Notes under the pieces: generated by a model
The model's input: the letters and a program-made list of their open reading frames with translations, nothing else
What the model was told of the DNA's origin: nothing
Databases searched by the model: none
Program-made: the position numbers and the translations under genes
Shown: positions 6,561 to 43,088 of the stretch, piece by piece
Position numbering within the stretch: the first letter of the stretch is position 1
Layout of the letters: every line of letters begins with the position of its first letter
DNA from: an uncultured Alphaproteobacteria bacterium
GTDB taxonomy: Bacteria > Pseudomonadota > Alphaproteobacteria > RF32 > CAG-239
Length of the DNA: 64,000 bases
NCBI GenBank assembly: GCA_944391695.1
Contig: CALXUO010000049.1
Span: 127-64,126, forward strand
Reading direction: 5' to 3'

Positions 6561-6578
6561 AATCGTTCTCCGCTACCC

Positions 6579-7883: not shown

Positions 7884-7901
7884 TGCTATATCCTTATCAT
7901 T

Positions 7902-26096: not shown

Positions 26097-27743
26097 TTAT
26101 TGTGTCCTTACTACGCTGCAGAATATACCGTTACGTCCAAGTCTACTGCATATCCTATCCCCTTCGCTAAGATTTTTAATCGGCCCTACACGTAAATGAA
26201 AAAGCTCTTTACCTTTGCCGTCAGCTGGTGCGTCCACCGAGAAAAACGGCGTAAGTCCATTTAATTCTCCGCTATAGGTTGATGATAAGCGGCTCCACAG
26301 AGATTCCAGATTGCTCACATCTCCATCTGCGCCAAGCTCTATTGAAATAGTCGAATTATCTCCATCGCTAAATCCTTTGCCATAGCCATATTGCGACAAG
26401 CCTGAATTTTTATACTGCGATTGGTCAAAGCTTTGTTGCTGGTTTGCCGTTGTATTACTGATACGCTGCATCTTAGAATAGTCAAAACTATCTGCAATAT
26501 TGCCATTTTGCGGATAATTATCGTTGGTGTATTCTGGAACAATAATCTGGCTTTGCCCCATCTGGATATCAACCTGGCCGGGCATAGCACTCATCCCTTG
26601 ACCGCCACCTAAGGATGCACCGCCCCCCATCATTTGAGCTCCGAAAGCGGACGAGTTTATCCCCATCGTCTGCTGATTGGGAATTGTCGGACCAACTTGC
26701 CATGTCGGCGGCATATAATCGCTTGAGTCAATAGCAAATTCCAAACCGCTCTCATTAGAACGGCGCATCTTAATACAAATTATGCGTTTACCGTTACGAA
26801 GCACCATATCACCCACGCCCTCAACTATAATCAATCTGTTATCCGGACCTTTGGTTCTAAATCCTACCGGCACTTCAACCCTCTCAACAATCATGCTAAC
26901 AACAGGCCTTTGGGTCATGTTAAGCGCTTTTTTGCCTAAATCAATATAGGTAAAGATATTATCGCGCCATACTCTTTCAGGGGCAATTACCACATCATCA
27001 GGATTGGGAACATATACCTCCAAATCAAACCTAAACTCACTCGGATCAACAGGTATTGTCTTGAGCCAATCTGATTTTTGCAAGCGCCTAGTATAGGTTG
27101 CATCAACTGACTTATTACCACTTGAAGAACCTCCGCTTGAGCCACCAGCAAACGGTGTTGACCCACCGGAGCCTGATGGCGCATATTCGTCAACGACATC
27201 TATATCAATGATGGCGTTAGTTAGACGCTCGGTATTTACAGCCTCTGATTTAACATAAAACACATAACGATTACCTGAGCGCCCAAAAACGATAACATTA
27301 GTATCAACCCCTACATTGGCTCCTCTTTTAGGGTATAATAACAAAGTGCTGGGACCTGATATCTGTCCGTCAAATGTAGCACTATCTCCAATAAAAATAT
27401 CCTCTATCAGCTCCCATTCAGGGAAGTTTACCATGGTGATCATCCCCTCGCGCACACGAATCGGCAAAACCAAATCAGGCGTCCAGTAATACCTCGAATA
27501 TGCAGGCTTGCTTTGTCCCTCGCCCAGATTTTGCAACGGATCAAGCCAGGCCGCCTGTGTCATACCCAAAGAATTGAAACCAGCGTACCCCATATTCATC
27601 GGCGTATAGTTACCCTGCGCTTGCTCAGCGCTGGCGTCCATCATTTGCTGATCCACTTGCGCTAAAACCGACTGCGTTAATACCAAAAGAACCGTCGCCA
27701 CCAATAATAAAATTTTTATTTTTACTCTATCTCTCACGTTCAA
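26097..27743 (-). CDS. virB9: VirB9 homolog fused to a low-complexity linker and a C-terminal SPOR-like domain
   Basis: 548 aa with signal peptide 'LLLVATVLLVLTQSVLAQ'. The N-domain 'LPIRVREGMITMVNFPEWELIEDIFIGDS...NRYVFYVKS' and the C-domain 'PERVWRDNIFTYIDLGKK...PVVSMIV' are VirB9-like. The G/Q/M/S-rich linker is about 170 aa. The last 85 aa, 'LFHLRVGPIKNLSEGDRICSRLGRNGIFCSVVR', match the SPOR consensus pattern. Confidence 0.8.
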   Translation of the reverse strand: MNVRDRVKIKILLLVATVLLVLTQSVLAQVDQQMMDASAEQAQGNYTPMNMGYAGFNSLGMTQAAWLDPLQNLGEGQSKPAYSRYYWTPDLVLPIRVREGMITMVNFPEWELIEDIFIGDSATFDGQISGPSTLLLYPKRGANVGVDTNVIVFGRSGNRYVFYVKSEAVNTERLTNAIIDIDVVDEYAPSGSGGSTPFAGGSSGGSSSGNKSVDATYTRRLQKSDWLKTIPVDPSEFRFDLEVYVPNPDDVVIAPERVWRDNIFTYIDLGKKALNMTQRPVVSMIVERVEVPVGFRTKGPDNRLIIVEGVGDMVLRNGKRIICIKMRRSNESGLEFAIDSSDYMPPTWQVGPTIPNQQTMGINSSAFGAQMMGGGASLGGGQGMSAMPGQVDIQMGQSQIIVPEYTNDNYPQNGNIADSFDYSKMQRISNTTANQQQSFDQSQYKNSGLSQYGYGKGFSDGDNSTISIELGADGDVSNLESLWSRLSSTYSGELNGLTPFFSVDAPADGKGKELFHLRVGPIKNLSEGDRICSRLGRNGIFCSVVRTQ

Positions 27744-28484
27744 CTACTCCACCTTGTTGCGGCTTAACGCATATCTTAACACCGTAAATCCGACCGGATT
27801 TTTTAACCTGTCGTCATACTTAACCTTTTTGCGACGATAGCCGACATTCAATGATGCCGTCCAATAACCTATCTCCGGCTCAGTAGAATCCGGATACATA
27901 TCCCTTGTTTCATATTCAACCTGCCAAATACCGTCTGTCAACTCATTAACTGACAAAATCTTTACCGTGCGTTCAAAACCTTTATTCTTGATAAGACTAA
28001 TCGCTTTGGTCGCAACATTATCCAAAAAATCCTGATAAACACGATTATCCGACATCTCTTGTATAGGGCCGCCCGGCATCCATCTGGCCTCAACCTCAGA
28101 AACATCGCTACTGAAAGTACTGCGCAAGAGAACATACTCCCTTACAAACACCTCGGTAATCGCTTTACGATTGCGCAATTCCGTCGTGAGTGGCTGAATA
28201 TTATAAACTTGTTCGGAACGATTTTGAAACGTAAGCAAAAACGGCTCAACCCTATATAGCGGAACAACTTGGAAAATAGCCAGAATCAACACGATATTGC
28301 AACACAAACTAACCGCCGTAATTACTGCAAACGCTCTAGCTGTCCACAAATAGCGTTTTTCAGCAATGTTGGCAACAAAAATATCCTCACCTGCGCTTTT
28401 TGATGAAGAGCCACGCCCAGGTATGCGGCGACGCCCCTCCAAAAGCCTTGACTGCGGTTTATCCTGTCCGATTTCTTCCACCAT
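27744..28484 (-). CDS. virB8: VirB8 homolog (paralog 2)
   Basis: 246 aa. An N-terminal cytoplasmic stretch is followed by the TM helix 'AFAVITAVSLCCNIVLILAIFQVVPL', then 'VEPFLLTFQNRSEQVYNIQPL' and 'ITEVFVREYVLLRSTF', which are typical VirB8 periplasmic-domain motifs. Confidence 0.8.
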   Translation of the reverse strand: MVEEIGQDKPQSRLLEGRRRIPGRGSSSKSAGEDIFVANIAEKRYLWTARAFAVITAVSLCCNIVLILAIFQVVPLYRVEPFLLTFQNRSEQVYNIQPLTTELRNRKAITEVFVREYVLLRSTFSSDVSEVEARWMPGGPIQEMSDNRVYQDFLDNVATKAISLIKNKGFERTVKILSVNELTDGIWQVEYETRDMYPDSTEPEIGYWTASLNVGYRRKKVKYDDRLKNPVGFTVLRYALSRNKVE

Positions 28485-28505
28485 AACAGCCTTTCTTATA
28501 AAAAA

Positions 28506-28694
28506 CTATATCGTTGCGACAAACCAATCAGGCAGAGTCTTCGGCAACTCTACCTCCATACAGGCGCACGGCGATAATTTAAGCTCATCGTTGCCGGAAC
28601 CTATACCTATAGGCTCAGGCTCGTAATAAGAACCATAGCAGCCCGATAACACAAATAAAACAAACAGAATCAATATTTTACATCTTGTTTTCAT
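28506..28694 (-). CDS. virB7: VirB7-like small lipoprotein
   Basis: I trimmed the ORF to the ATG at 28694 (AGGAGG upstream). It is 62 aa, with 'MKTRCKILILFVLFVLSGC' carrying an LSGC lipobox. It sits between two virB8 paralogs and upstream of virB9, as rvhB7 does in Rickettsiales. Confidence 0.6.
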   Translation of the reverse strand: MKTRCKILILFVLFVLSGCYGSYYEPEPIGIGSGNDELKLSPCACMEVELPKTLPDWFVATI

Positions 28695-28799
28695 GAGAAA
28701 CAACCCTCCTTAAGGGGTTAATATATAGCACTATAGATAGTATGAAATTATACCGTTTTATTTTAAATGTCTAACAGCTTAGATATACTTATCAACAAA

Positions 28800-29555
28800 T
28801 TAGAACACTTCTACTTCGGTTTGAGAATAACGTGTAACCGTAAAACCCAGTGGATTAATCAACCGCGGGACAACAAATGATCTTTCAGGTATAAAATACG
28901 CCGTTATAGATGATGTCCAATATCTGACGCGCAAGGTAGATTCTTGTTGCGCTTGATTCTTGCCTTGCTCGTTATATAAATCATAAGTTTTAAAATCAAC
29001 TTTCCATACCGCTGAACGATTGCCCCCTTGGCGAGTAACCGAAATAATCTCTACCTCACGAACTAAAACTTGTTTGAATATTGTTTCCCATATTGTTTTG
29101 GTGGTTCGACCAAATTCATTATATGTATCGGGTGAAGAAAGATAATCAACCATACCTCCGCCCATCCAACGCGTGCGCATCTCTACCGGGTCATTGATGA
29201 TGGTATTGCGAATGATAACATATTGCCGAATAAACATTTCCAATAATTTGTCTTTTGAGGCCATATCCTGGGCTATGGCCTCATTACGAACAATATTGTC
29301 GGATTCACTTTGATTTATCAGTAAAAATGGCTCAACCGTAACTAATGGCGCCAGCCTAAACAATGATAATGACGCCAAAACTAGGAAAATCATTGATATC
29401 GTCGCGGTTAGGATAAAAAAACGCGAAACCCATAAATAATAAATCTGCTTAAAGGTGGTGCGCTCTTTCTCCAAATATTCTATATATTGTGGAGCGTCAA
29501 CCGCCCCAGAAATAGCCAATCTTTGAGTTCCGCCAGATATTTGTTTTGCCTCCAT
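28800..29555 (-). CDS. virB8: VirB8 homolog (paralog 1)
   Basis: 251 aa with TM helix 'FFILTATISMIFLVLASLSLFRLAPL', then 'VEPFLLINQSESDNIV' and 'LEMFIRQYVIIRNTI'. It is colinear with the paralog at 27744. Confidence 0.8.
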   Translation of the reverse strand: MEAKQISGGTQRLAISGAVDAPQYIEYLEKERTTFKQIYYLWVSRFFILTATISMIFLVLASLSLFRLAPLVTVEPFLLINQSESDNIVRNEAIAQDMASKDKLLEMFIRQYVIIRNTIINDPVEMRTRWMGGGMVDYLSSPDTYNEFGRTTKTIWETIFKQVLVREVEIISVTRQGGNRSAVWKVDFKTYDLYNEQGKNQAQQESTLRVRYWTSSITAYFIPERSFVVPRLINPLGFTVTRYSQTEVEVF

Positions 29556-29573: not shown

Positions 29574-32500
29574 TTAATAGTTTGCACAGTAGGGATCTTC
29601 TGAGTCATTATAATCTTTAGAATCTTCTTTTAAACTATTTTTATATTTATCTACAACGGCGCTGTCGGCTTCAGCCTTTTTTAGATCTGCATCAATATCG
29701 TTGCTGTCGGCCGTGGTGGGTGATATACGCATCAAACCTTCGGTGTCTTTTTTCATGGTGGAGATAAGCTTATCTAGTATCTCTACTTTCTCTTTAGCCG
29801 GCTCATTATCTGTTTGATCTACCCCCGACAAATCTTTTGAAGCTTTGTCTATTTGCTTATTTTTAATTTCTTTTATCTTTTTTACTGCCAATTGATAATC
29901 GGAATCATTGCGCAAATCAAAATCATCCGACGGTGTAAAGCCATAGCTTATAAGCGTTTCTTTTAGCTCGTCTAGGCTCTCGTTATATTTTTTTCTGTAT
30001 TCTTCCAGATTTTCCCGTTGCAGCTTCTCATTCTCGACAAAGTACAAGAAATCTCCTATCTGATTGCGCGACAATGCCGCAAAATTTGCCGAGGCAACTT
30101 CGTCTTTCTTGTTATCGTTAAGATCTTCTCCTTCATCTTCGCCCAAATGTCTATATGCCTCAAAAGCCCTTTTCCTAAATTGCAAATTGTTATTATCATC
30201 AGCTTCAAGCAACATCCCGAGTTCGCTGTAAGTGCACTCCGGATCTGCTGCTTCTTCATTTGAAAAAAATGTTGATCCGAATTTCACCGGAGAATCAAAT
30301 ATCGTATGATATGGTTTGCCGTTTTCCATCTTTATCAGCATACAATCAGATAATTCTGATACATTTAAATCCGTGCGATACAAAAATTCACCCTTACTGT
30401 TTACATCCAAAACTTTTGACGTGCCTTTAATCTTACACGGCATTATGCCTCCACGAGAAAAAGCAACATCCACACAGCCGTTATCCAGCGCTTCTTTCAG
30501 GTTATACTCTGCCTCAATAAAAGCATGATCTTTTAGCATATACTGCCAAATAAGCGGTATGTCGCCACCATAGTTCAAAAAGTCGGAAGCGGTTATATTG
30601 CGGTCTTTTTTATTTTTGATAACCGGTTTGACGTTGGCAAAATCGGTGGCGTCAAAGTGAAAAACCTCTCGAACATGCGGAAGATTAAAGTTTGGAATGG
30701 CAAACGGCGCTTTCAAATCTCTTTCTTTGGCCGTGGCTCCGATAAAGAAACCTTCCGTTTCGGCTTTAGTGTCTGCAGATAGTAATGCCGCATAAACTGC
30801 TATATTACTCAACCTGGCAAAGCCTGCAACATTGTAGCTGATGGTTAAAGCCTTAATCCTGTCAATCATCTGCTGATGTATTCTTACAACCTCTGAATGT
30901 GTTGCCGGATTGTATAACTTGTCTTTAAGCCCCAGTATTTCGTTATAGCCTTCATCAACAACAACATCTACCATTTCATAAAGATTAACCAAGGCTCTGT
31001 CGGCCTCTTCTCTGGCCTTTTTTATTAATGCATCGGGATCTATTAAAGGATTGTCTTCAACCATTTCGGCAATTATGGCTCGCAAATTTTTTGAAACATC
31101 CTCCGAATATTGCTGAGAACTTTTTTGTATGCTCTCGTTCCATTCTGCCTGAAGCGAGAGGACGTTTGACAAACCTGCTGCCATACTTGAGGTGGCTGCA
31201 TCTTGAGCTGCCAATTTTGCCAGGGCTATTTCTTCATCAATTGCATCAAGCTGAGCCTGATACCCGTCAAGTTGGGCTTTGTTTGATGTTATTGTCGCTT
31301 CCAGTCCGGAAATCTTACTCTCATCAGTTTCATCTTTTTTTGCCTCGGAAACAGCTGTGTTTAGCTCCTCAACTCCCAAAATCTTGTCTTCAACCGTATC
31401 CGTAGTGTTTTCACTATCAGAGTATACAACCTTGGCGGTTACTTTAGCTTCTATTGCCTGTGTTGCTTTGTTTTCGGCAACGGATCTGATATCGGCAATT
31501 TCATTACTGCTGTCGCTTATAACTTTATTAACAGCATCCATTTGGGCAATTATTTGTGAACGTTGGGCTTCCAGCCCGGAAACTGCTTCTTGCCCCGAAC
31601 TGCTGCTTTGCGCGTTAGATATAACTTCGCCTCTGGCTTGAACTATTTCGGCCGATGCTTTATCCCTGGCCTCTTGGAGCTGTTGTTGATATTTGGTTTT
31701 TGATATATCTTGACTTTCACCCTTGAGTTTGGCCACAACAAGAGCTAAAACATCATCGCTGGTATAGCCTTTGAGATAGGATTTAATATTTTCATATTTG
31801 CGCCGCAAATATTGCTGATAAAAATTTTTGGTGTCCGTCCAAACAAGTGATTTTTTGCCTTGTTCTCCCCATTGAGAAGCATTTTCTCCAAGTGTTTTGG
31901 CGGCCTCAGCTCCGATTTGCCAAGCAAGTAACGCTGATTCTCTCCCCTCTTTTTGGGATTCTTCCTGTTTGCTTGCATCTACCGAAACCTTAACTGCTTG
32001 GCCTTCTTTCTCTGCTTTGCTCATGTCTGGATCATCCAAAAGATCTGCTTTCTTTTCATCATCAATTGAGGTTTGTGCTATATCTTCTGCCGTTATGGTT
32101 GATGTCTCGGCGGCTTTGGCTGTTTCGTATGCTTCTATCGCCCAAGCCGAAATCCCGCTTCGTAAATCATGATTGTTTACATTTTCTCCCAAATTGCCTC
32201 CGGACCATACATCCGCCGAATTATTAAAATATTCTCCGATATAGTTAGCGGCACATTGATCGGAAATAGATAATTTTTGTAGTACCGTTTCATGGTCTCT
32301 TTCCATCTCGGCAAGTTGATCTGCCACTTGTTTATAGCCTTTTAGGGAGCTGAGAATATTGTGTATTTGCATTGCTACATTAACTTCATCTTCAATTTCT
32401 TTAAGATTATCAAGTGTTTCCAGCTTGCTCTCAGCCTTTATAAGCGGATGTTCATTATCGGGCTCTTCGGGAGAGACGAATTCTACCGTTTGTTTAACAA

Positions 32501-33500
32501 TTGTTGCTCCGGAGCTTGAACCTGCGGAAACCGAACTTGTCGTCGCAGCCGATGCGGCCTGAGCCGAGGCCTTTTGGACAATTCTCATCGCTTCTGATTT
32601 ATTACCGGAAACCGCAGCTTCCATATTGGATAATGATGAAGCAACATCTTTATAAGCAACTTGCGCAAATGCCAATTGTTCTGATTGATGCTTAAAAATC
32701 GGCGGAAGCCTCAAATAGGCCTCGGTTGCACTATCCGAACCCTCTGATGCTTCTTCGGTATCAAGCTGCGGGGTTATCCTTTGCATACTTTTAACTGCTT
32801 TAAGCTGAGCCTTAAGGGCTACAACATTCTCCCATAACCTTATGACACTATCAAACGCTTTTAATGTTTGGCCATAGGCAAATAAGACTTCATTATTGCC
32901 TCCGGATTCTTCATCTTCCTCTGAATCGGTGCTTGGGATATTACACAATGATCCGTCGCCTTCGGCACAATCTTTGGCTAGTTCTATCTTGGCTCTGATG
33001 TCATTGCTTACTTTTTCTTGAAGAATTCTTGCGGCCTGATAAATGGCATAAACGTTTTCAATATAAAACTTGTTGCGTTGGTCTATTGAATAATTTACAT
33101 CGGCTATTTTGTTGGATTTGTAGGTAAAAAAGACTTTGCGCATTTTTTTGGCAATTTTTTTGACCTTTACATTTTTGAGGTCTTGGCCGCAAAAAGTTGC
33201 ACCAATATCATCGGGACCGACGTCTTCATCAAATATCGCACCGCTTTTAATATTGTTAAAAGTTGCCGTTAACGCCGATTGGAGGCTGGTTATATCTGAT
33301 TTGGCTTGTAAAACAATCTCGTTTCCCTGTTGAATACCACTTTGAATATTAGCCGCAAATTGCGGAATTTCTTCTGGAATATCAAATGTTATAGATGGAC
33401 CTAGACCATGATATATCAAATCCCACGGCATTTGAGCATATGCCAGAGACGACAACGCCAACATAATACTTATTAAGACTATAAATATCTGCTTTCTCAT
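29574..33500 (-). CDS. secreted 1308-aa coiled-coil protein, unknown family
   Basis: Signal peptide 'IVLISIMLALSSLAYAQ'. The N-terminus 'ITFDIPEEIPQFAANIQSGIQQGNEIV' follows, then very long A/E/K/Q/S-rich predicted helices. The C-terminal globular part contains Cys residues and the protein ends 'DPYCANY'. Confidence 0.6.
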   Translation of the reverse strand: MRKQIFIVLISIMLALSSLAYAQMPWDLIYHGLGPSITFDIPEEIPQFAANIQSGIQQGNEIVLQAKSDITSLQSALTATFNNIKSGAIFDEDVGPDDIGATFCGQDLKNVKVKKIAKKMRKVFFTYKSNKIADVNYSIDQRNKFYIENVYAIYQAARILQEKVSNDIRAKIELAKDCAEGDGSLCNIPSTDSEEDEESGGNNEVLFAYGQTLKAFDSVIRLWENVVALKAQLKAVKSMQRITPQLDTEEASEGSDSATEAYLRLPPIFKHQSEQLAFAQVAYKDVASSLSNMEAAVSGNKSEAMRIVQKASAQAASAATTSSVSAGSSSGATIVKQTVEFVSPEEPDNEHPLIKAESKLETLDNLKEIEDEVNVAMQIHNILSSLKGYKQVADQLAEMERDHETVLQKLSISDQCAANYIGEYFNNSADVWSGGNLGENVNNHDLRSGISAWAIEAYETAKAAETSTITAEDIAQTSIDDEKKADLLDDPDMSKAEKEGQAVKVSVDASKQEESQKEGRESALLAWQIGAEAAKTLGENASQWGEQGKKSLVWTDTKNFYQQYLRRKYENIKSYLKGYTSDDVLALVVAKLKGESQDISKTKYQQQLQEARDKASAEIVQARGEVISNAQSSSSGQEAVSGLEAQRSQIIAQMDAVNKVISDSSNEIADIRSVAENKATQAIEAKVTAKVVYSDSENTTDTVEDKILGVEELNTAVSEAKKDETDESKISGLEATITSNKAQLDGYQAQLDAIDEEIALAKLAAQDAATSSMAAGLSNVLSLQAEWNESIQKSSQQYSEDVSKNLRAIIAEMVEDNPLIDPDALIKKAREEADRALVNLYEMVDVVVDEGYNEILGLKDKLYNPATHSEVVRIHQQMIDRIKALTISYNVAGFARLSNIAVYAALLSADTKAETEGFFIGATAKERDLKAPFAIPNFNLPHVREVFHFDATDFANVKPVIKNKKDRNITASDFLNYGGDIPLIWQYMLKDHAFIEAEYNLKEALDNGCVDVAFSRGGIMPCKIKGTSKVLDVNSKGEFLYRTDLNVSELSDCMLIKMENGKPYHTIFDSPVKFGSTFFSNEEAADPECTYSELGMLLEADDNNNLQFRKRAFEAYRHLGEDEGEDLNDNKKDEVASANFAALSRNQIGDFLYFVENEKLQRENLEEYRKKYNESLDELKETLISYGFTPSDDFDLRNDSDYQLAVKKIKEIKNKQIDKASKDLSGVDQTDNEPAKEKVEILDKLISTMKKDTEGLMRISPTTADSNDIDADLKKAEADSAVVDKYKNSLKEDSKDYNDSEDPYCANY

Positions 33501-33512
33501 CTCTTGCCCTCC

Positions 33513-35462
33513 TTAAAACATTCCGCCAAGGAAATTAGATATTGCCGAAGATGAATCTTCGTCTTCTGTTGCGCTTTCTTCATCTGACGATAATTCCTTA
33601 TCCTGCTTTTCAGCTTCTGTTGCAAGTGTTGGCGATTTATTCTTTGTCGCTTCTTGCATCTCTTCATCCGCCAAAGGAGTTTTTGCCCCCTCTTCTTGAG
33701 AAGACAACAAACTTTCTGCTTCGGACTTTTTATCTGTCACGGCTGATTTTGCTTCATCATCAGTCTCTTTTATGTCTTTAGCTTCCGCGGCTGAAGTAGC
33801 TAAACTTTCTTTGGATGCGGCAACATCGGTTGTTTCGGGATATAAAATGTCATATATGGAAGAAGCCATCGTTTCCGCAGCTGACGGCGAGCTGCTTGTT
33901 GCAGCCACGCTCGGAGTTATTGCCTGCTTTGTCTGGGTGCTTGCCTTTGATGACGAGCTATTGCTTGTTGCTCCGCTTAAAGTTTTGCTTTTACTTGCTC
34001 CTTGAGAGCCGGATGAGGTTGATGCCGATCCATCATTTGAAGAGCCGCTTGTTTTACTGTCTGTATTGTCGGCATCTTCATCGCTTGATGATGAGCCTGT
34101 TGTTCCACCGGATGAACCGCTACCAGATAAGCTTCCACCGGATGAACCGCCAAAGCCGGCGCCGATGCCACCCAGACTATCGCCCAATTCACCGATATCC
34201 CCCATAATGTCTTTAACATCATCTACTTTGTCTTGCAGGTTGTTGATTCCGTCCTTGGCATCATTTATCATGTCTGATATATTCATTCCGTCATCGTCAT
34301 CTCCCGTGTAACTGCAAATATCAATTACCGTTTTGGCATCAGTTACCGGTATTTGACTGTTGGCAATAATATTAATCGTTTCGGTCTCTATTGCTAAAAG
34401 TTCCATTGTCAGATACTTTTGCAAGGCCTCCATTTGATAAATAATGTTATTGATGGCAAACTGCGCGGCCTCGGATTTTCCGTTTACGGTTTCGGAAGTA
34501 TCGGAAACTGTTTCCTGCTCATCTTTGGTGTCTTCTGTTAAGGCTAGTACCATAACGGCACCCGACGAAGCATCTATGGCCGATTTTCTGGATTTTGCTC
34601 TTCTGCTTTCGGAACGTTTTTTCTTATCTTTTAGTGAAATACTTTCCCCTTCTTTAACCGCCATTTCTTCCATCATTTCTTCTATTCCCTGCTCAGGACT
34701 AACCTCGGAAACCGAAGAATTTTCTTTCTTTTGCGTTATTTCGCTCAACTCTTTGGTCAGCTCGGCAATCTTTTTGGTTTGGTTAACAATGCTTTCTGCA
34801 AACTCTTGATTTGTCGCATTTACCTGATCACTAAGCTTGCTTTCTACAGAATCTATTTCTGATTGAATTGCTGCTAAGTCTTTCTCGCTGGTGGTTTCAA
34901 AATCAGCTATCTTTTTTTCTATGGACGCCTTTTCCTCATCAGAAGAAGCGGCGGCAAGCTCTTCTTCATAGATGGAGTACCTGGCATCCAAATTGCTTTT
35001 GACCTGTTTGAGTTTTTCTTCCAATGTGGTACGTTCAACCTCAGATGCAGATTGAATTTCACTTAGTTTTGTCTCTTTTTGGCTTTGTAAATCTTGCAAA
35101 ACTTTGGTTTCTTGAGCTATCTCCTTGGATTTGAGTGCAATCTTATAGGTGTCAGAATCTTTGACCGTATCCTGAACATCGTTGTAAATTTCAACTATTT
35201 CGGCATATTTTTCTTTGGCAAATTCCATACCTTCTTTGGCCGCCTTTATCCCATCTCCGATAAAAGTGGCAAACTGCGATTCACTGATTTGCTCCATCAC
35301 ATTCTGATAATTCTCTTGTTGTTTTTGAATCCAATCAGCAAATTTGCCGCCTGTTTTGCCGGGGTCAATCTTAAAAATATCTTGCGCCAAAACATCGGTG
35401 CTGATAAAAGACATCGCCAAAAAAACAATCAGAAAATAATTTAATTTAGATGGCTTATTCAT
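33513..35462 (-). CDS. secreted 649-aa coiled-coil and S/T/G-rich low-complexity protein
   Basis: Signal peptide 'FLIVFLAMSFISTDVLAQ'. The N-terminal half is coiled coil. The C-terminal half is low complexity ('GGSSGGSLSGSGSSGGTTGSSSSDEDADN'). Its start overlaps the upstream gene's stop by 1 nt (TAATG). Confidence 0.6.
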   Translation of the reverse strand: MNKPSKLNYFLIVFLAMSFISTDVLAQDIFKIDPGKTGGKFADWIQKQQENYQNVMEQISESQFATFIGDGIKAAKEGMEFAKEKYAEIVEIYNDVQDTVKDSDTYKIALKSKEIAQETKVLQDLQSQKETKLSEIQSASEVERTTLEEKLKQVKSNLDARYSIYEEELAAASSDEEKASIEKKIADFETTSEKDLAAIQSEIDSVESKLSDQVNATNQEFAESIVNQTKKIAELTKELSEITQKKENSSVSEVSPEQGIEEMMEEMAVKEGESISLKDKKKRSESRRAKSRKSAIDASSGAVMVLALTEDTKDEQETVSDTSETVNGKSEAAQFAINNIIYQMEALQKYLTMELLAIETETINIIANSQIPVTDAKTVIDICSYTGDDDDGMNISDMINDAKDGINNLQDKVDDVKDIMGDIGELGDSLGGIGAGFGGSSGGSLSGSGSSGGTTGSSSSDEDADNTDSKTSGSSNDGSASTSSGSQGASKSKTLSGATSNSSSSKASTQTKQAITPSVAATSSSPSAAETMASSIYDILYPETTDVAASKESLATSAAEAKDIKETDDEAKSAVTDKKSEAESLLSSQEEGAKTPLADEEMQEATKNKSPTLATEAEKQDKELSSDEESATEDEDSSSAISNFLGGMF

Positions 35463-36025
35463 TATTTTCCTCCTGCCTTATTTAGATATTCACAATCGCT
35501 GACATAGTCATAATTACCATTATCCAACGCAAGAAACTCGGAATAAATACCGGGGGCCATATTATCAAGCTCTTCCAAAGCATCAAGCATGGCTATACCC
35601 GCCTCAAACGAATTAATGATATTAATGCGCCTGGCTATGTCAGCCGTGCTTTGAATAATGCCCTCTTCAATAATGGCTATTTCGTTTGATATATCGGCCG
35701 ATAAAGAATCGTCTTCCTCATCTTCTTCCTCTTCGGCAATGTATGCTGATATCTTAATCGACTGAGCATATAAATTAGATATATAATTTGAAAAAATATC
35801 ATAAAGATTCTTGGTGGTAGTTGAAGTTTGACCTACCCCGGGCTTAATCGATTTAATAATGCGACACATATTGTAGGGGGTCTCCTCTATATCTTCGTCT
35901 CCTAACGGTGAAAGCCACAAGAGCTCAGGATCGCCCTTGACTTTGGCATAGGCATCGGTCAGCATTATAAAAAAGCTGCAGATAAAACACATAACCAATA
36001 CAAAATATTTACTATTTTGCAGCAT
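35462..36025 (-). CDS. secreted 187-aa protein, unknown family
   Basis: I trimmed the ORF to the ATG at 36025 (AAGGAG RBS). The product begins 'MLQNSKYFVLVMCFICSFFIMLTDAYA'. The annotated upstream 47 codons are the K/R-rich out-of-frame 3' end of the preceding gene. Confidence 0.55.
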   Translation of the reverse strand: MLQNSKYFVLVMCFICSFFIMLTDAYAKVKGDPELLWLSPLGDEDIEETPYNMCRIIKSIKPGVGQTSTTTKNLYDIFSNYISNLYAQSIKISAYIAEEEEDEEDDSLSADISNEIAIIEEGIIQSTADIARRINIINSFEAGIAMLDALEELDNMAPGIYSEFLALDNGNYDYVSDCEYLNKAGGK

Positions 36026-37544
36026 TGATTCTCTCCTTAATTGTTTGCGATGATGTGGCATCCGTTGCTGTTGCCGATGAAATGCCTTTTTTCGCCGTAT
36101 CTGAAAGTTTGCCTTTTTCCTCATCATCAACAACCTTTTCTTTGGCCTTTGAGGCTGCCTGCTCATCAGCTGTGGCTACCGCTTCTTTTGCCTGGTTTTC
36201 AGCCTCTTTGGCCTTTGAGCCTGCCTGCTCATCAGCTGTGGCTACCCCGTCTTTTGCCTGGTTTTCAGCCTCTTTGGCCTTTGAGCCTGCCTGCATATCA
36301 GCTGTGGCGGATATAATACCTGCCGATGTTACTTGAGGCATAGCCACCGCTGAGGCAGATTGTAAACCCAAAGATGTTTGCGCCGAAGTTGCTTGTTGGT
36401 TTGAAGGTACTGTTTGTTGAACAACGGCCGAGGTCTGAGCTGCGCTTGCGGTATTTGAGGTTATGGTTCTGATTGTTGAATTTTGAACATTAAAATCAAC
36501 CAACCTCTCTGCCGACGTGCTACTTACTCGATTATCTGAATTATGAGAACGATTTGATACCTCGGCAAGTTGTTGACTGATATTGAGTTGGCTTACAACC
36601 GGTGTTTGGGTTACGCTTGCTTCTTTTGAAGTATTGGAAATTGCCGTCATAACGTCGGAGACACTAACCTCTTGTTTCTTTTCTACCGTAGGAAGCGAAA
36701 CAACAGAAGCAACTTTATCGGCCGAAACGGCGCTTGAAGAGGCTAATGCCGATGCCGACATAATTGCCGAGGCTTTGTTTAATGCTTCTTTATTCGTTGT
36801 CGATGCTACAGCAGATGTTGCTGTTTTCAAACTTTTATCAGCAGATGTTGATGTTGCTGTTGTCAATTGCTTGGACGCACTTGTTTCTTTATTGCTGCTG
36901 CCTGAGGAAACATCTTTACTGCTACTAGAGGAAACTCCTTTATTGCTGCTGCCGGAGGAAGCATCTTTACTGCTACTAGAGGAAACTCCTTTATTGCTGC
37001 TGCCGGAGGAAGCATTATCATTTGTGCCTTCTGCAGATGTAGAATCTGATGTCTCTTTATTATCGCCGATTAAATCCGAAACAGTACCATCAATATCTTC
37101 TTTAATTTCTTGTGCCTGTTCATAATATGACATCATCTCTTCTTTGATGGATTGGCCTTGGGCAATGGCTTCTTGCGCTTTATCCCTATATTCTTGTGCC
37201 TTGGCATTAAGCTCTTGATATTTGGCCATTAGTTCTTCTTTGCGTTCTTGAGCTGTTTCAATACGTTCCTTAAGATTCTCTGCTTTTTCTTTGAGATTCT
37301 CAGCCTTTTCTTTTAATTTTTCTAGTTTTCCTAAGTTTAGTTTTTCAGGGTCTAGACTAACCTTGGTGGTTACCAGTTTTCGTGCAACGCCAGAATATTT
37401 TTTTTGAACCAAACTTGCTTGTTTTAAAAAACTATTGCTTTGGGTTAGGACATTTGACAATAAGTCGGTGCCACCATAAGCTAAATTGATATTTAGATTT
37501 ATGGTCACTAAGATAACTAAAAATATTTGCACCATCTTAGTCAT
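36012..37544 (-). CDS. secreted 510-aa coiled-coil and S/A/T-rich repeat protein
   Basis: I trimmed the ORF to the ATG at 37544 (AAGGAAA RBS). The product begins 'MTKMVQIFLVILVTINLNINLAYG'. It contains 'KEKAENLKEKAENLKERIE', 17-aa 'SSGSSNKGVSSSSSKD[AV]' repeats, and 22-aa 'ADEQAGSKAKEAENQAKEAVAT' repeats. Confidence 0.6.
   Translation of the reverse strand: MTKMVQIFLVILVTINLNINLAYGGTDLLSNVLTQSNSFLKQASLVQKKYSGVARKLVTTKVSLDPEKLNLGKLEKLKEKAENLKEKAENLKERIETAQERKEELMAKYQELNAKAQEYRDKAQEAIAQGQSIKEEMMSYYEQAQEIKEDIDGTVSDLIGDNKETSDSTSAEGTNDNASSGSSNKGVSSSSSKDASSGSSNKGVSSSSSKDVSSGSSNKETSASKQLTTATSTSADKSLKTATSAVASTTNKEALNKASAIMSASALASSSAVSADKVASVVSLPTVEKKQEVSVSDVMTAISNTSKEASVTQTPVVSQLNISQQLAEVSNRSHNSDNRVSSTSAERLVDFNVQNSTIRTITSNTASAAQTSAVVQQTVPSNQQATSAQTSLGLQSASAVAMPQVTSAGIISATADMQAGSKAKEAENQAKDGVATADEQAGSKAKEAENQAKEAVATADEQAASKAKEKVVDDEEKGKLSDTAKKGISSATATDATSSQTIKERINAAK
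36135..36310 (-). repeat. in-frame tandem repeat, 66-bp unit, about 2.7 copies
   Basis: 'tttggcctttgag.ctgcctgc' recurs at 36141, 36207 and 36273. Confidence 0.8.
36880..37020 (-). repeat. in-frame tandem repeat, 51-bp unit, about 2.7 copies
   Basis: 'attgctgctgcc' recurs at 36891, 36942 and 36993. Confidence 0.8.
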
Positions 37545-37560
37545 AATTGTTTCCTTTCCG

Positions 37561-38133
37561 CTACGATGGAGGCATTCCCCACGAAGTATCTTCTGTATCA
37601 ACATCTGTTTCTTTAACTATGTTGTTTAAGATGTTGTTTATGTTGTCAAAATTAATAATAGACGATCTCATGTCTATTGCTTGCAAAAATACGCTTGAAT
37701 TATCTGAAGACAGCTTGTTATTAAACTCCATTTTTTCGCGGCTATCATTATCAAGCTCAACCGAAACGGTAGGATCTTGCTTGATAAGTTCGTCAATCCT
37801 GTCTTCATAGCCTCCGGATAAAACTTTTTGATTTATGGCCTTAAATAAATAGGCTCTTGCATAGTCATTAATAATCGCTTTCTTTTCCGATTCATAATTT
37901 TCATATCCGGGAGGTAAGTCGGTTTTATAATCATAGGCTAAGCGCCTTATGCAATCTTCCGTTATACCGGGATCGCTGGAATCCAAGCCGCAACGTAACG
38001 CCAAAATCTCGGAAACAATTAATGTATTGTTGGCGTCTCTTCCGTTGTCTTTATTTTCTGCCAGGGAAATCTGACAAAATAAAACATTTGCCAATAAAAC
38101 AATTAAAAGATATTTTAGCGTTCTTTTCATCAT
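37561..38133 (-). CDS. secreted 190-aa protein that appears homologous to the C-terminal domain of the 721-aa protein upstream
   Basis: I trimmed the ORF to the ATG at 38133, immediately after the upstream stop. The product begins 'MMKRTLKYLLIVLLANVLFCQISLA'. 'CGLDSSDPGITEDCIRRL...INDYARAYLFKAINQK' aligns by eye with 'CDLDYEKAIEDEENFDECLKK...HAEYIAMAYLKAFNIY' of the 38135..40300 product. Confidence 0.55.
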   Translation of the reverse strand: MMKRTLKYLLIVLLANVLFCQISLAENKDNGRDANNTLIVSEILALRCGLDSSDPGITEDCIRRLAYDYKTDLPPGYENYESEKKAIINDYARAYLFKAINQKVLSGGYEDRIDELIKQDPTVSVELDNDSREKMEFNNKLSSDNSSVFLQAIDMRSSIINFDNINNILNNIVKETDVDTEDTSWGMPPS

Positions 38134-38134
38134 T

Positions 38135-40300
38135 TTATTCTCCCAAAACGTTTTCATTGTCCTCGTCAGTTTCCTTAATCGCTTCCGTAACATAAGCCCT
38201 GAAAGCTTTTATACTTAAGGTATCGGCCCATATATTGTTTAGTGCATTATAGCGGGTTCCCAAAATACGTGTCACCTCTTTGGCATAGCTCCAAGCATCG
38301 TCAACCGTGCTAATGTTTGAAGTAAGAATCGGGTCAATCATGTTGTTTTTGAATGTCATACTATCGTTATAGATGTTAAAAGCTTTCAAATATGCCATTG
38401 CAATGTATTCTGCATGACTGTTATTTATGTTTCTTTTGGAATTAGAGATGTCTTGCTTGCTTATATCTTCGGTTACTTCGCTTGCAGCGACGGTGTTAGT
38501 TTTTTTTAAGCACTCGTCAAAATTTTCTTCATCTTCAATAGCCTTTTCATAGTCTAAGTCGCAACTTATGGCCAAACTGTCAGGAATGATTAAAGCTTTG
38601 TCTTGCGTATAACCGCTTTTGCTGCCGGTTATCTCTGATAATAAACTAGCAAATGCCAACGGATAGCTTTGATGTATGCTTCCAAAGCCATAAGAAGTCT
38701 TAAAGGCTCTGCGTGTAGGCTTATTTGAGGAGGTAGATTGGGGGACCTGTGCTGAAGACGAGGTTTCATTTTTTTCATAAGCAGACGTCGTTGCTTTGGA
38801 CGTTGCTGCTTTGGTATTACTTACGGTGGTTGCTCTTGTTCCTACACTTGCACCCTCTTTTGCGGCAGAAACAGCGGTTTGAGCGGTTGCCGCTTTGGCA
38901 TTACTTACGGCGGTTGCTCTTGTTCCTACACTTGCGCCCTCTTTTGCGGCAGAAACAGCTGTTTGAGCGGTTGCTTCTTTGGCATCGCTTACGGCGGCAT
39001 CACCTGGTTTGTCTGCCCCCTCACCCTCTTTTGCGGCAGAATCGGCGGTTTGAGATGTTGCCGCTTTGGCATCGCTTACGGCGGCATCACCTGGTTTGTC
39101 TGCTCCCTCACCCTCTTTTGCGGCAGAATCGGCGGTTTGAGACGTTGCCATGGCAGTGTCGGCAGGTGTTGTAATTTGACTTGACATCGCGGGAGAAACC
39201 TCTGTCGAAGCCATATTACCTGTCATAGTAGGAACTGTTTCAACAGCTGTTGCCATTTGGGCAGATGAAGTAGCCGTAGTATTAGCAGCTGAACTTTGAT
39301 TATCAACCGTAACAAAAGCCGTTCTGGTGGGACTTGCTGCTTGGACTGACGGAATTGCCGCCACCACTTGAGAAACGCTGTTATTGGCAACTGCAGAAAC
39401 TGCTTTGGTTGCGGCGGTCGCTTGGATTGCCGGAGTTGCAGAAACTGCTTTGGTTGCGGCGGTCGCTTGGACTGCCGGAGGTGCAGAAACTGCTTTGGTT
39501 GCGGCGGTTGCTTGGACTGCCGGAGGTGCAGAAACTGCTTTGGTCGAGGCGGTTGCTTGGATTGCCGGAGTTGCAGAAACTGCTTTGGTTGCGGCGGTCG
39601 TTTTTTCTGCCGAGGTTGCAGCAGTTGCCTTAGAAACCTTACTATTAGCACTGGCAGAAACTGCTTTGGTTGAGGCTGTCGTTTTTTCTGCCGAGGTTGT
39701 TGCTTTACTAGCCGAAATTTTTGCCTTGGATGTTCCTTTTGCTGTATTCTCCGCTGTTTCTTGTGAACTTTCTTTATATTGAGAACTTCCGGTTGTTACG
39801 TTTCCGTCAGCCGCGCTATATGCTTCGCCATTGTTATCATTTCCACCGGTAAAATCATCAACATAGCCTTTGGCATCGTCAATATAGCCTTTGGCTTCGT
39901 CAATATAGCCTTTGGCTTCGTCAACATACCCTTTGGCATCATCAATATAGCCTTTGGCCTGTTCTATTTTGGCTTCGGCTTCCGCCTTATAGGCCATGGC
40001 TTTGGCTTTGAATTCTTCAACATCTTCTTTATACTGATTAAATTTATCAATTTTTTTTTGCAACTTTTCTTTTTGATCGGTAATAAATTCCGTCACACTC
40101 TTTTTGGCCGTACCAATAGCTGCCATCGTTTTTTGATATTGTGTAACCTGCGTTACACTTTCCTTAAAATTATTTATGGTGTTTTGAACCTCGGTTCCGG
40201 CTTGAAGAGTTCCCGGAATGTCAAATGTGGGGACAAACGCAAGGCTAAGTGAAGGAAATAACATAATTCCAAATAATGCTGATAAAAAATGCTTTTTCAT
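38135..40300 (-). CDS. secreted 721-aa protein with a VirB5/TrbJ-like N-terminus, a large A/T/S-rich repeat core, and a conserved C-terminal domain
   Basis: Signal peptide 'LSALFGIMLFPSLSLA'. The mature N-terminus 'FVPTFDIPGTLQAGTEVQNTINNFKESVTQVTQYQ' resembles the xVPVxD...Q start of VirB5/TrbJ proteins. The gene lies directly downstream of virB4. It contains 7-aa 'KGY[IV]D[DE]A' repeats, 15-aa 'KAVSAPPAVQATAAT' repeats, and 28/29-aa repeats. Confidence 0.55.
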   Translation of the reverse strand: MKKHFLSALFGIMLFPSLSLAFVPTFDIPGTLQAGTEVQNTINNFKESVTQVTQYQKTMAAIGTAKKSVTEFITDQKEKLQKKIDKFNQYKEDVEEFKAKAMAYKAEAEAKIEQAKGYIDDAKGYVDEAKGYIDEAKGYIDDAKGYVDDFTGGNDNNGEAYSAADGNVTTGSSQYKESSQETAENTAKGTSKAKISASKATTSAEKTTASTKAVSASANSKVSKATAATSAEKTTAATKAVSATPAIQATASTKAVSAPPAVQATAATKAVSAPPAVQATAATKAVSATPAIQATAATKAVSAVANNSVSQVVAAIPSVQAASPTRTAFVTVDNQSSAANTTATSSAQMATAVETVPTMTGNMASTEVSPAMSSQITTPADTAMATSQTADSAAKEGEGADKPGDAAVSDAKAATSQTADSAAKEGEGADKPGDAAVSDAKEATAQTAVSAAKEGASVGTRATAVSNAKAATAQTAVSAAKEGASVGTRATTVSNTKAATSKATTSAYEKNETSSSAQVPQSTSSNKPTRRAFKTSYGFGSIHQSYPLAFASLLSEITGSKSGYTQDKALIIPDSLAISCDLDYEKAIEDEENFDECLKKTNTVAASEVTEDISKQDISNSKRNINNSHAEYIAMAYLKAFNIYNDSMTFKNNMIDPILTSNISTVDDAWSYAKEVTRILGTRYNALNNIWADTLSIKAFRAYVTEAIKETDEDNENVLGE
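38806..39150 (-). repeat. in-frame tandem repeats, 2 x 84 bp followed by 2 x 87 bp
   Basis: The anchor 'ctttgg' occurs at 38809, 38893, 38977 and 39064, with long near-identical flanks. The encoded units are 'ATAQTAVSAAKEGASVGTRATAVSNAKA' and 'ATSQTADSAAKEGEGADKPGDAAVSDAKA'. Confidence 0.85.
39393..39620 (-). repeat. in-frame tandem repeat, 45-bp unit, about 5 copies
   Basis: 'gcagaaactgctttgg' occurs at 39393, 39438, 39483, 39528 and 39573, with a degenerate copy near 39654. Confidence 0.9.
39857..39962 (-). repeat. in-frame tandem repeat, 21-bp unit, 5 copies
   Basis: 'ata[gc]cctttggc' occurs at 39863, 39884, 39905, 39926 and 39947. It encodes 'KGY[IV]D[DE]A' heptads. Confidence 0.85.
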
Positions 40301-40378: not shown

Positions 40379-42862
40379 TTAAATATTTAAATATTTTGTA
40401 ACAAAATTATTCTCACCATATTCTTTTATAAGCTCTTCAACCAATAATACATTTTTACGGCCGGAATTATACAGCTTAAGATATGGCCCTAATCCGCTTA
40501 AATCTACATCCAAAATAACCGATTCTCCCGTGGCCGGCCTTGATAATAGAATGGCATACGGAAAATCACGGTATGATTTACCAAAAATGAAATCCGTTTC
40601 CGCCTCGGTCAAATTCCAGTTAACATAGTCTTCCGGCATTGCCTGTGGATTGCGGAAGAAAATAACCGTTTGACATTGCCCCCTGATAACCTCGCCAACA
40701 CCAAGTTTATCAATGATATTGGGCTGTTGAAACGCACAAAGATACGCCTGGCGCTTTTTTCGTCCTTCTTGCAGACCAATTGCAAAATAGTCTCTAAACA
40801 TCGGGTGCTTAAGCATTGGCGCAGTTTCATCAATCATAATCAATGAGGGAACACCCGTCTCGCCGGTTTCTGACTGAATGCGGTGCATAATATAACTGAT
40901 TACCGCCGGGGCCAAAGTTTCGTCTTCAAAAATATGCGTAAAATCAAACGCCATAAATCGCTTGCTCTTTAAATCAAGATTGTCATCCTGCGCGTTGAAA
41001 ATATTTCCGTATTGGTCGGGGTTAACCCACTTAAAAAGCTCGCGGCGCATATTGCCTGTTGGAGAAAAACAGCTCTTGTAAAGATTTTTCATCATTCGCT
41101 CTTCCGGACGAAGGTAATCAAATGCCGTGGTAACTGCTCGGGCTATCTCTTTTTCCGATACAGCATCGTCAACTAATGTAATCGCTCTCATCCAACGTCT
41201 TAAAAAGGCTCGGTTGTTTGGAGTGTTTTCACAATCAAACGGATTTAACGATACATTTTTTTCATCACCTTCAAAGCCAACATATGCCCCGCCAATAGCG
41301 CGAGTGAAAATTTCTGCGCCTCGATGGCGGTCAAAGAAGAACACTTTTAAGTCTGCATGACGCATGGCTTGGCCGGCCAAAAATGTTAATAATGTGGTTT
41401 TACCTTGTCCGGTTGGACCTATAATACAACAGTGCGCCACCGCTGAATCTTCAGACGAAACGTGAAATTGAAAGCGATATGCCGAACCTGCCGTGGTACG
41501 GAAAACAGATATTGCTCCCGGACCCCAATCTGATTTGGAAAAACCTTCCGACGGTTTGTCAAAGGATATCGCCGTAGCTACAACTCTTGAAAGATAACGA
41601 TAGGTCCTGGGAAGAGTTTCATATGTGGGAAACTGATTAAAAAATGTCGCTTGCGCAACCCAACCTTCGCGAACCGGTGTTACACCAAACAAACGACATA
41701 TTCGCTGAACCTCTCCCTCAGCAAAGTCTATCTCTTCTTTGCTTTCTCCTCTCAGTAATATCGCCATGGCATATTCGGTCAAGGCCTGATGATTGCTATC
41801 GCTTTCTTCTATCGCGGCCAAAACTTCACCATACTGATCTATAACATCTCCGGAAAAACTCGTCATCGACGCCATGCGCTGTTGTTGCATCAGCAAAGCT
41901 CTTGCTTGAGGCTTAAATATCGGTCGAATATTATGCAGCAAAACTAATTCGCAATCTATTGCCAATAACGATGAGACCATCGCCTCATCCATATAATCAC
42001 CGGAAGAACGTATGCCCATAACAATTTCATACAGTTCTTTATCGCCGGAGAAAAATTTTATAAGACCATCCTCTCCGGTAAAGTGAATATGATCCGAGGT
42101 CAACAACTGATTTAATTGTGCTCCCGTCGCACCATGTACTTTCGGCATGGGGCGAGATATAGGCGAGCAAAGTTTTGAATACACACTAAAAGGACTGTCT
42201 TCGGCTGAGCTTCCCTCTTCCTCTATTAATGTCTTTATGCCATAATCATTTAATGTGGCTATTAACGACTGGGAAGCATAGTTTAAGTCTTTGAGATTGT
42301 TATCGCGATCCGCAACTGATAAAACTATGTAATGCGTATTAAAGAAAACTCGGTTAATGTTCTCTTGCCATATATCCGATATTTTCTCTAATAACGGATT
42401 GTTGAAATTATGCACGTTTTCTTCCAACGGCACTTTTTCTCTTATTGTAATGACCCGACAGACAACTTGCAAATCTGACATACCGTCGATCCAAGATTTG
42501 CGAGCCTCTAGCATTGATGCTACTTTTTCCTCTGTAGCAAATGCCAAATCTACACCTTCAACCTTAAAAACCCTTGCCAATGAGCCATTATAACAACTTA
42601 TGGTCATGCCGTCTGATAAGAGCTTTTCAAACGGCATAAAATCAGAAACCCTAGACTCCCTTGGATGCGGTAAAACCAAATGTCCAAATTTGGTAGCCCA
42701 AAATCCGGCAAATGCCGCTGCCGATATAAAACCAATCGCCGCAACAATTACTTCAAAACTGGACAGACCTTCTACGAAGATCGAAAAAAAATCATAATCA
42801 GGGTGCAAATTTGTTCCCCTTTGCTTTATAAAGATTGTTTGTCTTTTTAGCCGATTGGCCAT
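40379..42862 (-). CDS. virB4: VirB4-family T4SS ATPase
   Basis: The Walker A is 'IIGPTGQGKTTLLTFLAG' and the Walker B is 'PSLIMIDETAPML'. 'AYLCAFQQP' and the overall length are also consistent. The gene follows virB3. The start is uncertain: the ORF track begins at 42910, I chose the ATG at 42862 (MANRLKRQ), and either choice overlaps the virB3 3' end. Confidence 0.9.
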   Translation of the reverse strand: MANRLKRQTIFIKQRGTNLHPDYDFFSIFVEGLSSFEVIVAAIGFISAAAFAGFWATKFGHLVLPHPRESRVSDFMPFEKLLSDGMTISCYNGSLARVFKVEGVDLAFATEEKVASMLEARKSWIDGMSDLQVVCRVITIREKVPLEENVHNFNNPLLEKISDIWQENINRVFFNTHYIVLSVADRDNNLKDLNYASQSLIATLNDYGIKTLIEEEGSSAEDSPFSVYSKLCSPISRPMPKVHGATGAQLNQLLTSDHIHFTGEDGLIKFFSGDKELYEIVMGIRSSGDYMDEAMVSSLLAIDCELVLLHNIRPIFKPQARALLMQQQRMASMTSFSGDVIDQYGEVLAAIEESDSNHQALTEYAMAILLRGESKEEIDFAEGEVQRICRLFGVTPVREGWVAQATFFNQFPTYETLPRTYRYLSRVVATAISFDKPSEGFSKSDWGPGAISVFRTTAGSAYRFQFHVSSEDSAVAHCCIIGPTGQGKTTLLTFLAGQAMRHADLKVFFFDRHRGAEIFTRAIGGAYVGFEGDEKNVSLNPFDCENTPNNRAFLRRWMRAITLVDDAVSEKEIARAVTTAFDYLRPEERMMKNLYKSCFSPTGNMRRELFKWVNPDQYGNIFNAQDDNLDLKSKRFMAFDFTHIFEDETLAPAVISYIMHRIQSETGETGVPSLIMIDETAPMLKHPMFRDYFAIGLQEGRKKRQAYLCAFQQPNIIDKLGVGEVIRGQCQTVIFFRNPQAMPEDYVNWNLTEAETDFIFGKSYRDFPYAILLSRPATGESVILDVDLSGLGPYLKLYNSGRKNVLLVEELIKEYGENNFVTKYLNI

Positions 42863-43088
42863 AAGCCTGAACCATTGCCGAAATATGCGGCTCTCTTGCC
42901 CCCATCGCAATACAGACTATATGCCCTAAAATAATTGACGCCATAAACCAAAGAGGATTAATTTCTAATGTCCCTAAAAACATGAACATCATCGGAAATT
43001 GTATTCCCATGTTAACCATCACCGGCAAAAACGGCCCCCATAAAATCTTTGGGGGATTGGCTACGGCTTTCAAAATAACTTCCCTCAT
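42798..43088 (-). CDS. virB3: VirB3-like small inner-membrane protein
   Basis: 96 aa. 'LKAVANPPKILWGPFLPVMVNMGIQFPMMFMF' fits the VirB3 pattern (xxRPxxxxGVP followed by two hydrophobic helices). The gene is immediately upstream of, and overlaps, virB4. Confidence 0.7.
   Translation of the reverse strand: MREVILKAVANPPKILWGPFLPVMVNMGIQFPMMFMFLGTLEINPLWFMASIILGHIVCIAMGAREPHISAMVQAYGQSAKKTNNLYKAKGNKFAP

Follow-up and report, generated by a model that had tools for sequence, protein, structure and literature searches.

A VirB5-like secreted protein with a C-terminal module encoded both fused and free in a type IV secretion locus of uncultured gut Alphaproteobacteria

VirB5 proteins set what the pilus of a type IV secretion system (T4SS) touches, and few compact forms of them have been studied. 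CagL is compact (about 26 kDa), without a spacer or a duplicated free domain, and in the Trw system of Bartonella the amplified trwL/virB2 and trwJ/virB5 genes are recent tandem duplicates of small whole genes, with virB6 and virB7. In the R388 system, VirB6 carries a VirB5 pentamer, which layers of VirB2 push outward (PMC9259494), and a report on CagL presents it as a VirB5 ortholog, a pilus-surface protein that binds host cells (PMC13721428). The rvh systems are without VirB5 (PMC2653234, PMC11077975); they are defined by duplicated RvhB4, RvhB8 and RvhB9, multicopy RvhB6 and no VirB5 analog (PMC11077975). Here we describe a chromosomal T4SS locus in a stretch of 64,000 nucleotides (hereafter the window; assembly GCA_944391695.1 of 1.37 Mb, contig CALXUO010000049.1, positions 127 to 64,126) from an uncultured bacterium of RF32, an alphaproteobacterial order whose uncultured members live in human and animal guts; we found no paper naming both RF32 and type IV secretion. 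The first of six genes between virB4 and virB8 (the cassette) encodes a protein of 721 amino acids (aa), P0001, which is probably a diverged, elongated and modular counterpart of VirB5, the stalk or pilus-tip protein of this lineage. Its C-terminal module is encoded a second time, as the product of the next gene, P0002.

The two proteins, their parts and the neighbouring virB4 gene are located as follows (coordinates are those of the window; ORF, open reading frame).

40379–42910, minus strand: virB4 (TIGR00929, E 1.4e-115, and PF03135), the neighbour upstream of P0001, which defines the virB5 slot.
38135–40300, minus strand: P0001, a predicted 721-aa secreted protein with VirB5-like N-module and C-module (ORF and translation), directly downstream of virB4.
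40238–40300, minus strand: predicted Sec signal peptide of P0001, residues 1–21, MKKHFLSALFGIMLFPSLSLA, a hydrophobic stretch read from the sequence.
40220–40237, minus strand: motif FVPTFD right after the signal peptide of P0001, putatively equivalent to the [GQ][IV]P[VT]xD with which mature VirB5/TrbJ proteins begin.
39851–40237, minus strand: N-module of P0001, residues 22–150, with the motif, a helix, a conserved AIGxAKK turn and a coiled coil, taken from the ortholog alignment.
38681–39850, minus strand: low-complexity spacer of P0001, residues ~151–540 (Ala 26%, Thr 16%, Ser 14%).
38156–38680, minus strand: C-module of P0001, residues ~541–715, a helical domain with two cysteines.
37561–38133, minus strand: P0002, a predicted 190-aa secreted protein with its own signal peptide followed by a free C-module (sequence and profile comparison).
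38128–38144, minus strand: P0001/P0002 junction, GGGAGAA-TAA-a-ATG-ATG, with the putative ribosome-binding site of P0002 inside the end of P0001.

The signal peptide of P0001 ends in ...SLSLA and the mature end is FVPTFDIPGTLQAGTEVQ, the cleavage site being placed by the SLA/F pattern and the ortholog alignment. At the end of the N-module, 21-bp repeats (39854–39958) encode five AKGY[IV]D[DE] heptads (residues 115–149). These heptads extend the coiled coil with perfect periodicity, and their number could shift by slippage. The spacer holds in-frame tandem repeats of 45, 84 and 87 bp. P0001 orthologs are 301–743 aa long, and the difference in size sits in the spacer, which is hypervariable among species: it can be nearly absent or reach about 400 residues. 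The two cysteines of the C-module, C580 and C597, are the sole cysteines of P0001.

The original prediction, made by eye, was that the C-terminal 170 aa or so of P0001 recur in a stand-alone 190-aa product. In a pairwise BLASTP comparison, P0001 and P0002 were not significantly similar (best E 0.15 over 22 aa). We then compared families: 20 P0001-family proteins (C-terminal 195 aa only) and 17 P0002-family proteins were aligned separately, and hhalign of the two profiles yielded a probability of 99.2% and an E-value of 1e-19 over 145 columns. At the level of sequence profiles, by which alone it is visible, this comparison confirms the predicted homology of the last ~175 residues of P0001 with P0002, and one domain is indeed encoded both fused and free. 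The shared pattern is D-[ND]-G-T-x-x-[ND]-G-x-h-h-h-P-x-x-h-A-x-x-C-G-L-x-S...C-L, that is, the D-[ND]-G-T motif, a hydrophobic strand, the P-x-x-h-A-x-x-C-G-L-x-S segment and the second cysteine in C-L, followed by long helices. The two cysteines (positions 48 and 61 in the 190-aa form of P0002) are conserved in more than 90% of 88 sequences.

The length of 190 aa given originally for P0002 also holds: the junction puts an ATG 1 nt past the stop of P0001, so the start of P0002 lies at 38133. A reading of 210 aa, which is an upstream extension of the ORF, was rejected. The junction suggests that P0001 and P0002 may be translationally coupled.

It could be argued that all these likenesses are products of chance or composition among helical Lys/Glu-rich sequences, given that pairwise BLASTP is not significant and that many coiled-coil families reach similar E-values in single-sequence scans with hidden Markov models (HMMs). 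We consider this explanation very improbable. For the C-module it is contradicted by the E-value of the profile match and its 145 columns, by the shared non-helical motif and by the two conserved cysteines. An exhaustive HMMER search returned 761 cluster representatives of the family at E <=0.001, with lengths of 179–951 aa, and the shuffled, reversed and neighbouring-gene controls described below do not match VirB5.

The second part of the original prediction was a VirB5/TrbJ-like N-terminus. As a reference, we used 30 VirB5 proteins that score over the PF07996 threshold, from 401 genomes of the phylum. These true VirB5 proteins carry [GQ]-[IV]-P-[VT]-x-D directly after the signal peptide (for example, GIPVID, QIPVTD and GVPTFD); mature P0001 starts with FVPTFD, and its orthologs with QIPVID, QVPTTD or AIIPTAD. 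When compared with VirB5 by hhalign, the N-domain profile of the genus matched from column 1 of both profiles with 76–78% probability and E ~2e-5 (best 78%, E 1.8e-5), the family-wide N profile (32 sequences) with 91% and E 1.1e-6, and the first 50 columns of the latter alone with 94% and E 9.5e-8. In control comparisons with VirB5, the reversed alignment reached E 0.031, the best of 30 column shuffles E 0.42, and the N-domains of the other five cassette families E 0.015 to 0.42. The matches span just 39–53 columns and hinge on the motif. Since the controls fail, we regard the N-terminal likeness as probably real and in register but short; its signal lies in the motif and its helical setting. 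The same register is seen with PF07996, which aligns residues 23–108 of P0001 to profile positions 2–88; in the whole genome, this model touches a single place, the N-terminus of P0001 (10.2 bits in the genome scan), and its best E-value among P0001 orthologs is 0.0014. Together, the comparisons support a VirB5-like N-terminus of P0001 at the profile level.

The system is widespread in the order. All 81 sampled genomes, representing 18 genera, contain its VirB4; this genome has a single VirB4 match, as do almost all relatives. Nineteen same-genus loci retain the arrangement virB4, six genes, virB8, with P0001 orthologs at the same position, and P0002 orthologs adjoin them in most same-genus genomes; in other genera, four to six genes separate virB4 and virB8. 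The bacteria with related loci are uncultured Alphaproteobacteria from the guts of humans, deer and rabbit (for example, 'Proteobacteria bacterium CAG:495' and 'Azospirillum sp. 51_20'). In each of 20 examined genomes from other genera, the product of the first full-length gene past virB4 has a motif of the [FWIL]P[VTS]x[DN] type after its signal peptide, such as AQWPTFD or ALIPTLD, and AQFAVFD in the most distant genome. The C-module HMM matched the first full-length gene past virB4 in most genera sampled; one divergent genus (loci L063–L065 and L144–L147) gave no C-module match.

Several observations weigh against P0001 being a VirB5 counterpart. The likeness to VirB5 is limited to the first ~40 residues, so that the predicted similarity stands for this segment (76–94%, E 2e-5 to 1e-7) and not beyond it. 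If the first eight columns, which contain the motif, are removed, the match to VirB5 is lost (E 0.033), and profiles of the rest of P0001, including the C-module, do not significantly match the remainder of VirB5 (E 0.15–0.5). The curated models proposed originally as a check do not recover the family: PF07996 scores 14.2 bits (E 0.057) with the N-terminal 135 aa of P0001, against a threshold of 24.7, and has no match at E <=1 with the full-length protein. The NCBIfam TrbJ/VirB5 matches are out of register and sit among equally strong Rad50/SMC coiled-coil noise. NCBIfam TrbJ matches on P0001 orthologs (best E 3.7e-6) were rejected, as they lie in the coiled coil, ~40 residues out of register; for both reasons, we discounted the NCBIfam matches. 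A scan of all six cassette proteins with Pfam and NCBIfam gave no VirB5 or TrbJ match, and none of the homologs returned with annotation has a VirB5 Pfam domain. Finally, the N- and C-modules are separate genes in some genomes (see below) and therefore need not form one VirB5 fold. The idea that they are halves of one such fold parted by an insert was considered: a second, co-linear hhalign match, to the C-terminus of VirB5, had an E-value of 0.02, and the genomes with separate genes favour independent modules.

Further points on this side come from structure models. We modelled the natural 301-aa ortholog of P0001, which is without the spacer, using AlphaFold with 88 sequences from loci fetched via VirB4. 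The mean predicted local distance difference test score (pLDDT) was 78.6, with 90–96 for the C-module and ~87 for the coiled coil, and the motif region was modelled at pLDDT <55. An earlier run with 31 sequences was unusable (pLDDT 50.7), and the appearance of CagL at rank 19 with E 3 in its Foldseek search is meaningless. The model of the second run is all-helical; in its C-module, two long helices accompany a small hairpin and short helices. The best Foldseek match to this model in the PDB was a designed helical bundle (E 0.2), and the top 50 contained no VirB5, TraC or CagL chain, Foldseek being weak on helical bundles. The fold looked for was that of TraC, in which a three-helix bundle bears a globular appendage. 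Profile searches of PDB sequences with the N-domain and full alignments gave coiled-coil noise only. Because neither search gave a match, the C-module appears as a domain without a recognisable relative.

The absence of a curated VirB5 or TrbJ model over threshold, the short, motif-dependent likeness and the missing structural match to VirB5, along with the low complexity, repeats and fast evolution that are found in many surface antigens, would all be expected if P0001 and P0002 were surface proteins, secreted proteins particular to this lineage or substrates of the system that happen to lie in the operon, with the PxxD start as a signal for export, processing or sorting or as a case of convergence. 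This is unlikely in our view, as the motif occupies the exact first mature residues, just as in the 30 true VirB5 proteins, and is kept past virB4 in every other-genus genome examined, whereas the neighbouring N-domains of the same composition do not match VirB5. Moreover, the PF07996 scan found no other VirB5 candidate in the genome, and T4SS substrates are normally without Sec signal peptides.

The modules are combined in four layouts: N-C alone; N-C with a free C; N-C-C in one chain; and separate N and C genes. The second is the layout of the window and of most of its genus. Proteins of the N-C-C type have, for example, 659, 843, 927 and 492 aa. In those of the genus, copy one scores 159–186 bits with the P0001-type model and 46–63 with the P0002-type model, and copy two scores 107–126 bits with the P0002-type model and 43–103 with the P0001-type model. 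As each copy scores best with its own model, these proteins are P0001 and P0002 joined. The split layout is found in a sister genus (loci L117–L133), where an N gene of ~309 aa, with the motif and without a C-module, precedes a C gene of ~340 aa, the product of which has its own predicted signal peptide and a coiled coil.

Two other loci are of separate interest. In the neighbouring family, locus L062 (9703–10485) encodes a 260-aa, VirB5-sized protein past virB4 that starts with AQFAVFD and has a weak C-module match at its end (E 2e-5). This protein may be useful as a bridge form in deeper comparisons. Its match to DUF4141 (PF13605), which covers the signal peptide and the motif, falls just short of the threshold (28.8 bits against 30). 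Locus L157 (CAYVUJ010000281.1) is a contig of 2.6 kb recorded as 'uncultured Lachnospiraceae bacterium'; it contains a VirB4 end with 98% identity followed by a P0001-type gene, and is probably mis-binned.

Compared with the nearest genomes, cassette proteins have identities of 37–57%, VirB4 of 91–94%, VirB8 of 80–87% and VirB9 of 75–77%. This contrast of rates inside one operon is sharp, with the cassette at 29574–40300 on one side and 26097–29555 and 40379–42910 on the other. The divergence bears on whether P0001, P0002 and their neighbours instead form a long, helical periplasmic scaffold of an enlarged machine and are not displayed at a tip. Such a scaffold would match the giant two-piece VirB10 (ORFs of 1099 and 1681 aa) and VirB9, several cassette proteins are long coiled coils, and the cassette is strictly syntenic, as core parts are. 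We hold this to be distinctly unlikely: in the same genome pairs, the core proteins VirB8 and VirB9 are 75–87% identical and thus far more conserved than the cassette, and the range of spacer lengths is hard to square with a fixed scaffold. Ala/Thr/Ser-rich tandem repeats would also be typical of exposed spacers.

The position of its gene, the motif and the profile match support the descent of P0001 from VirB5. If P0001 is an elongated VirB5 counterpart, its N-module would dock on the VirB6/VirB2 assembly site in the manner of VirB5 in the R388 structure, and polymerisation of the VirB2 pilin would carry the protein outward to the pilus tip, according to the mechanism described for R388 (PMC9259494). 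The spacer would keep the C-module, as a target-binding head, away from the tip, and P0002 would pair with this fused C-module. We infer the tip location, the pairing and the target binding; for the pairing, we rely on the general observation that the partners of a fusion usually interact where they are encoded apart. The rapid divergence would then result from the display of these proteins on the outside of gut-dwelling cells. More tentatively, it is possible, if doubtful, that the fused and free C-modules pair as a two-lobed, disulfide-stabilised receptor-binding head of a previously undescribed kind, which would stand on a mucin-like spacer and attach to host mucus, epithelium or microbes, with fusion, fission and divergence tuning or disguising the head.

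Three other cassette proteins were compared with the N-module.

33513–35462, minus strand: P0005, 649 aa; an N-module paralog makes up the first ~80 residues (AQDIFKIDPGKTGGKF...IGDG).
36012–37604, minus strand: P0006, 530 aa; the coiled coil at its N-terminus is similar to the N-module of P0001.
29574–33500, minus strand: P0003, 1308 aa, with 'SITFDIPEEI' ~14 residues past the likely cleavage site.

The family at the position of P0005 matched the VirB5-like N-domain family with 94.9% probability and E 4.2e-8, in an 80-column alignment that keeps the motif in register, and on this basis P0005 carries an N-module paralog; the locus therefore contains at least two VirB5-type N-modules. P0005 itself starts with IFKIDPGK...IGDG, and the gene at the same position in other genera begins with GWPVFD, AGIPTVD or ALIVDV. 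P0006 matched the N-module of P0001 with 92% probability and E 6.6e-7 over 92 columns and has no PxxD motif; this resemblance may be coiled-coil bias. The similar N-terminus predicted originally for the 1308-aa protein was not borne out: P0003 gave E-values of 0.015 and 0.004 with VirB5 and of 0.021 and 0.003 with the P0001 family, that is, in the range of 0.003–0.02, at probabilities of <=10%, which is not significant. Among pairwise BLASTP comparisons of P0001 with P0002, P0003 and P0004, only that with P0003 reached E 0.004, largely through the signal peptide.

The genes of the region are all on the minus strand, in the order three VirB2-domain genes, virB3, virB4 and the six-gene cassette, with products of 721, 210 (really 190), 530, 234, 649 and 1308 aa in operon order. 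All six cassette proteins have a hydrophobic signal sequence at the N-terminus and are without other membrane segments. On the 3' side of the cassette lie two virB8 genes, virB9, the two-piece giant virB10, virB11, a 773-aa ORF and four tandem polytopic VirB6-like genes. The 773-aa ORF has no Pfam match and is read as VirD4 by position only. The features of the locus outside the cassette include the following.

27744–29555, minus strand: two VirB8-like ORFs, 251 and 246 aa, recognised by eye and synteny only.
2097–10253: four tandem polytopic membrane proteins, 842, 641, 434 and 783 aa, VirB6-like.
53388–55340: a fifth polytopic protein, 650 aa, VirB6-like.

Three of the polytopic proteins score 26.3, 23.4 and 20.2 bits with TrbL/VirB6 (PF04610, threshold 25.9), which places multicopy VirB6 outside the virB4–virB8 slot; virB6 is not directly 3' of P0001, and the VirB6 paralogs are located elsewhere in the window. 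Two ORFs are probably overstated in length. The VirB4 ORF overlaps virB3, and its relatives align only from ~residue 35. The 234-aa ORF (35462–36166) has a very basic 47-residue leader that overlaps the preceding gene, and its orthologs begin near Met48.

Among the relatives of P0001, the presumed docking module and the presumed head, with the spacer, are repeatedly fused and split, which makes it directly testable which of the parts docks and which binds. Claims that a T4SS "lacks VirB5" need caution, because the Pfam and NCBIfam models miss these proteins.

The locus can be compared with four described cases. Like VirB5, TraC (pKM101), TrwJ (R388) and TrbJ, P0001 has a Sec signal peptide followed by [IV]P[VT]xD and a long amphipathic helix, and like members of the VirB5 family it is encoded directly after virB4, as the sole such candidate in the genome. 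In contrast to VirB5 (~220–250 aa), it is three times longer (721 aa), is alignable only over the first ~40 residues and scores below the Pfam threshold. It also adds a repeat spacer and a C-domain without detectable relation to the VirB5 bundle, and this C-domain is duplicated as a separate gene. CagL is likewise described as a highly diverged VirB5 ortholog, barely detected by conventional searches; no match of the P0001 family to CagL in sequence or fold was found.

With rvh, the locus shares a duplicated VirB8 and multiple large VirB6 paralogs in an alphaproteobacterial chromosome. Unlike rvh, it has a single VirB4 and, on the above reading of P0001, a VirB5-like gene, and it belongs to gut Alphaproteobacteria and not to Rickettsiales. 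The statement in the original prediction that rvh systems lack VirB5 agrees with the literature, but the locus is itself not rvh, since its VirB4 is single and its host lies outside Rickettsiales.

The Trw system of Bartonella resembles the locus in having several VirB2 paralogs beside several VirB5-like paralogs; the counterparts here are the three VirB2-domain genes and the N-modules of P0001, P0005 and possibly P0006. In contrast to those of Trw, the paralogs described here are ancient and of differing architecture, and their modules are exchanged as genes fuse or split. By analogy, the parallel suggests that arrays of VirB2 and VirB5-like paralogs may form variant surface structures for host contact.

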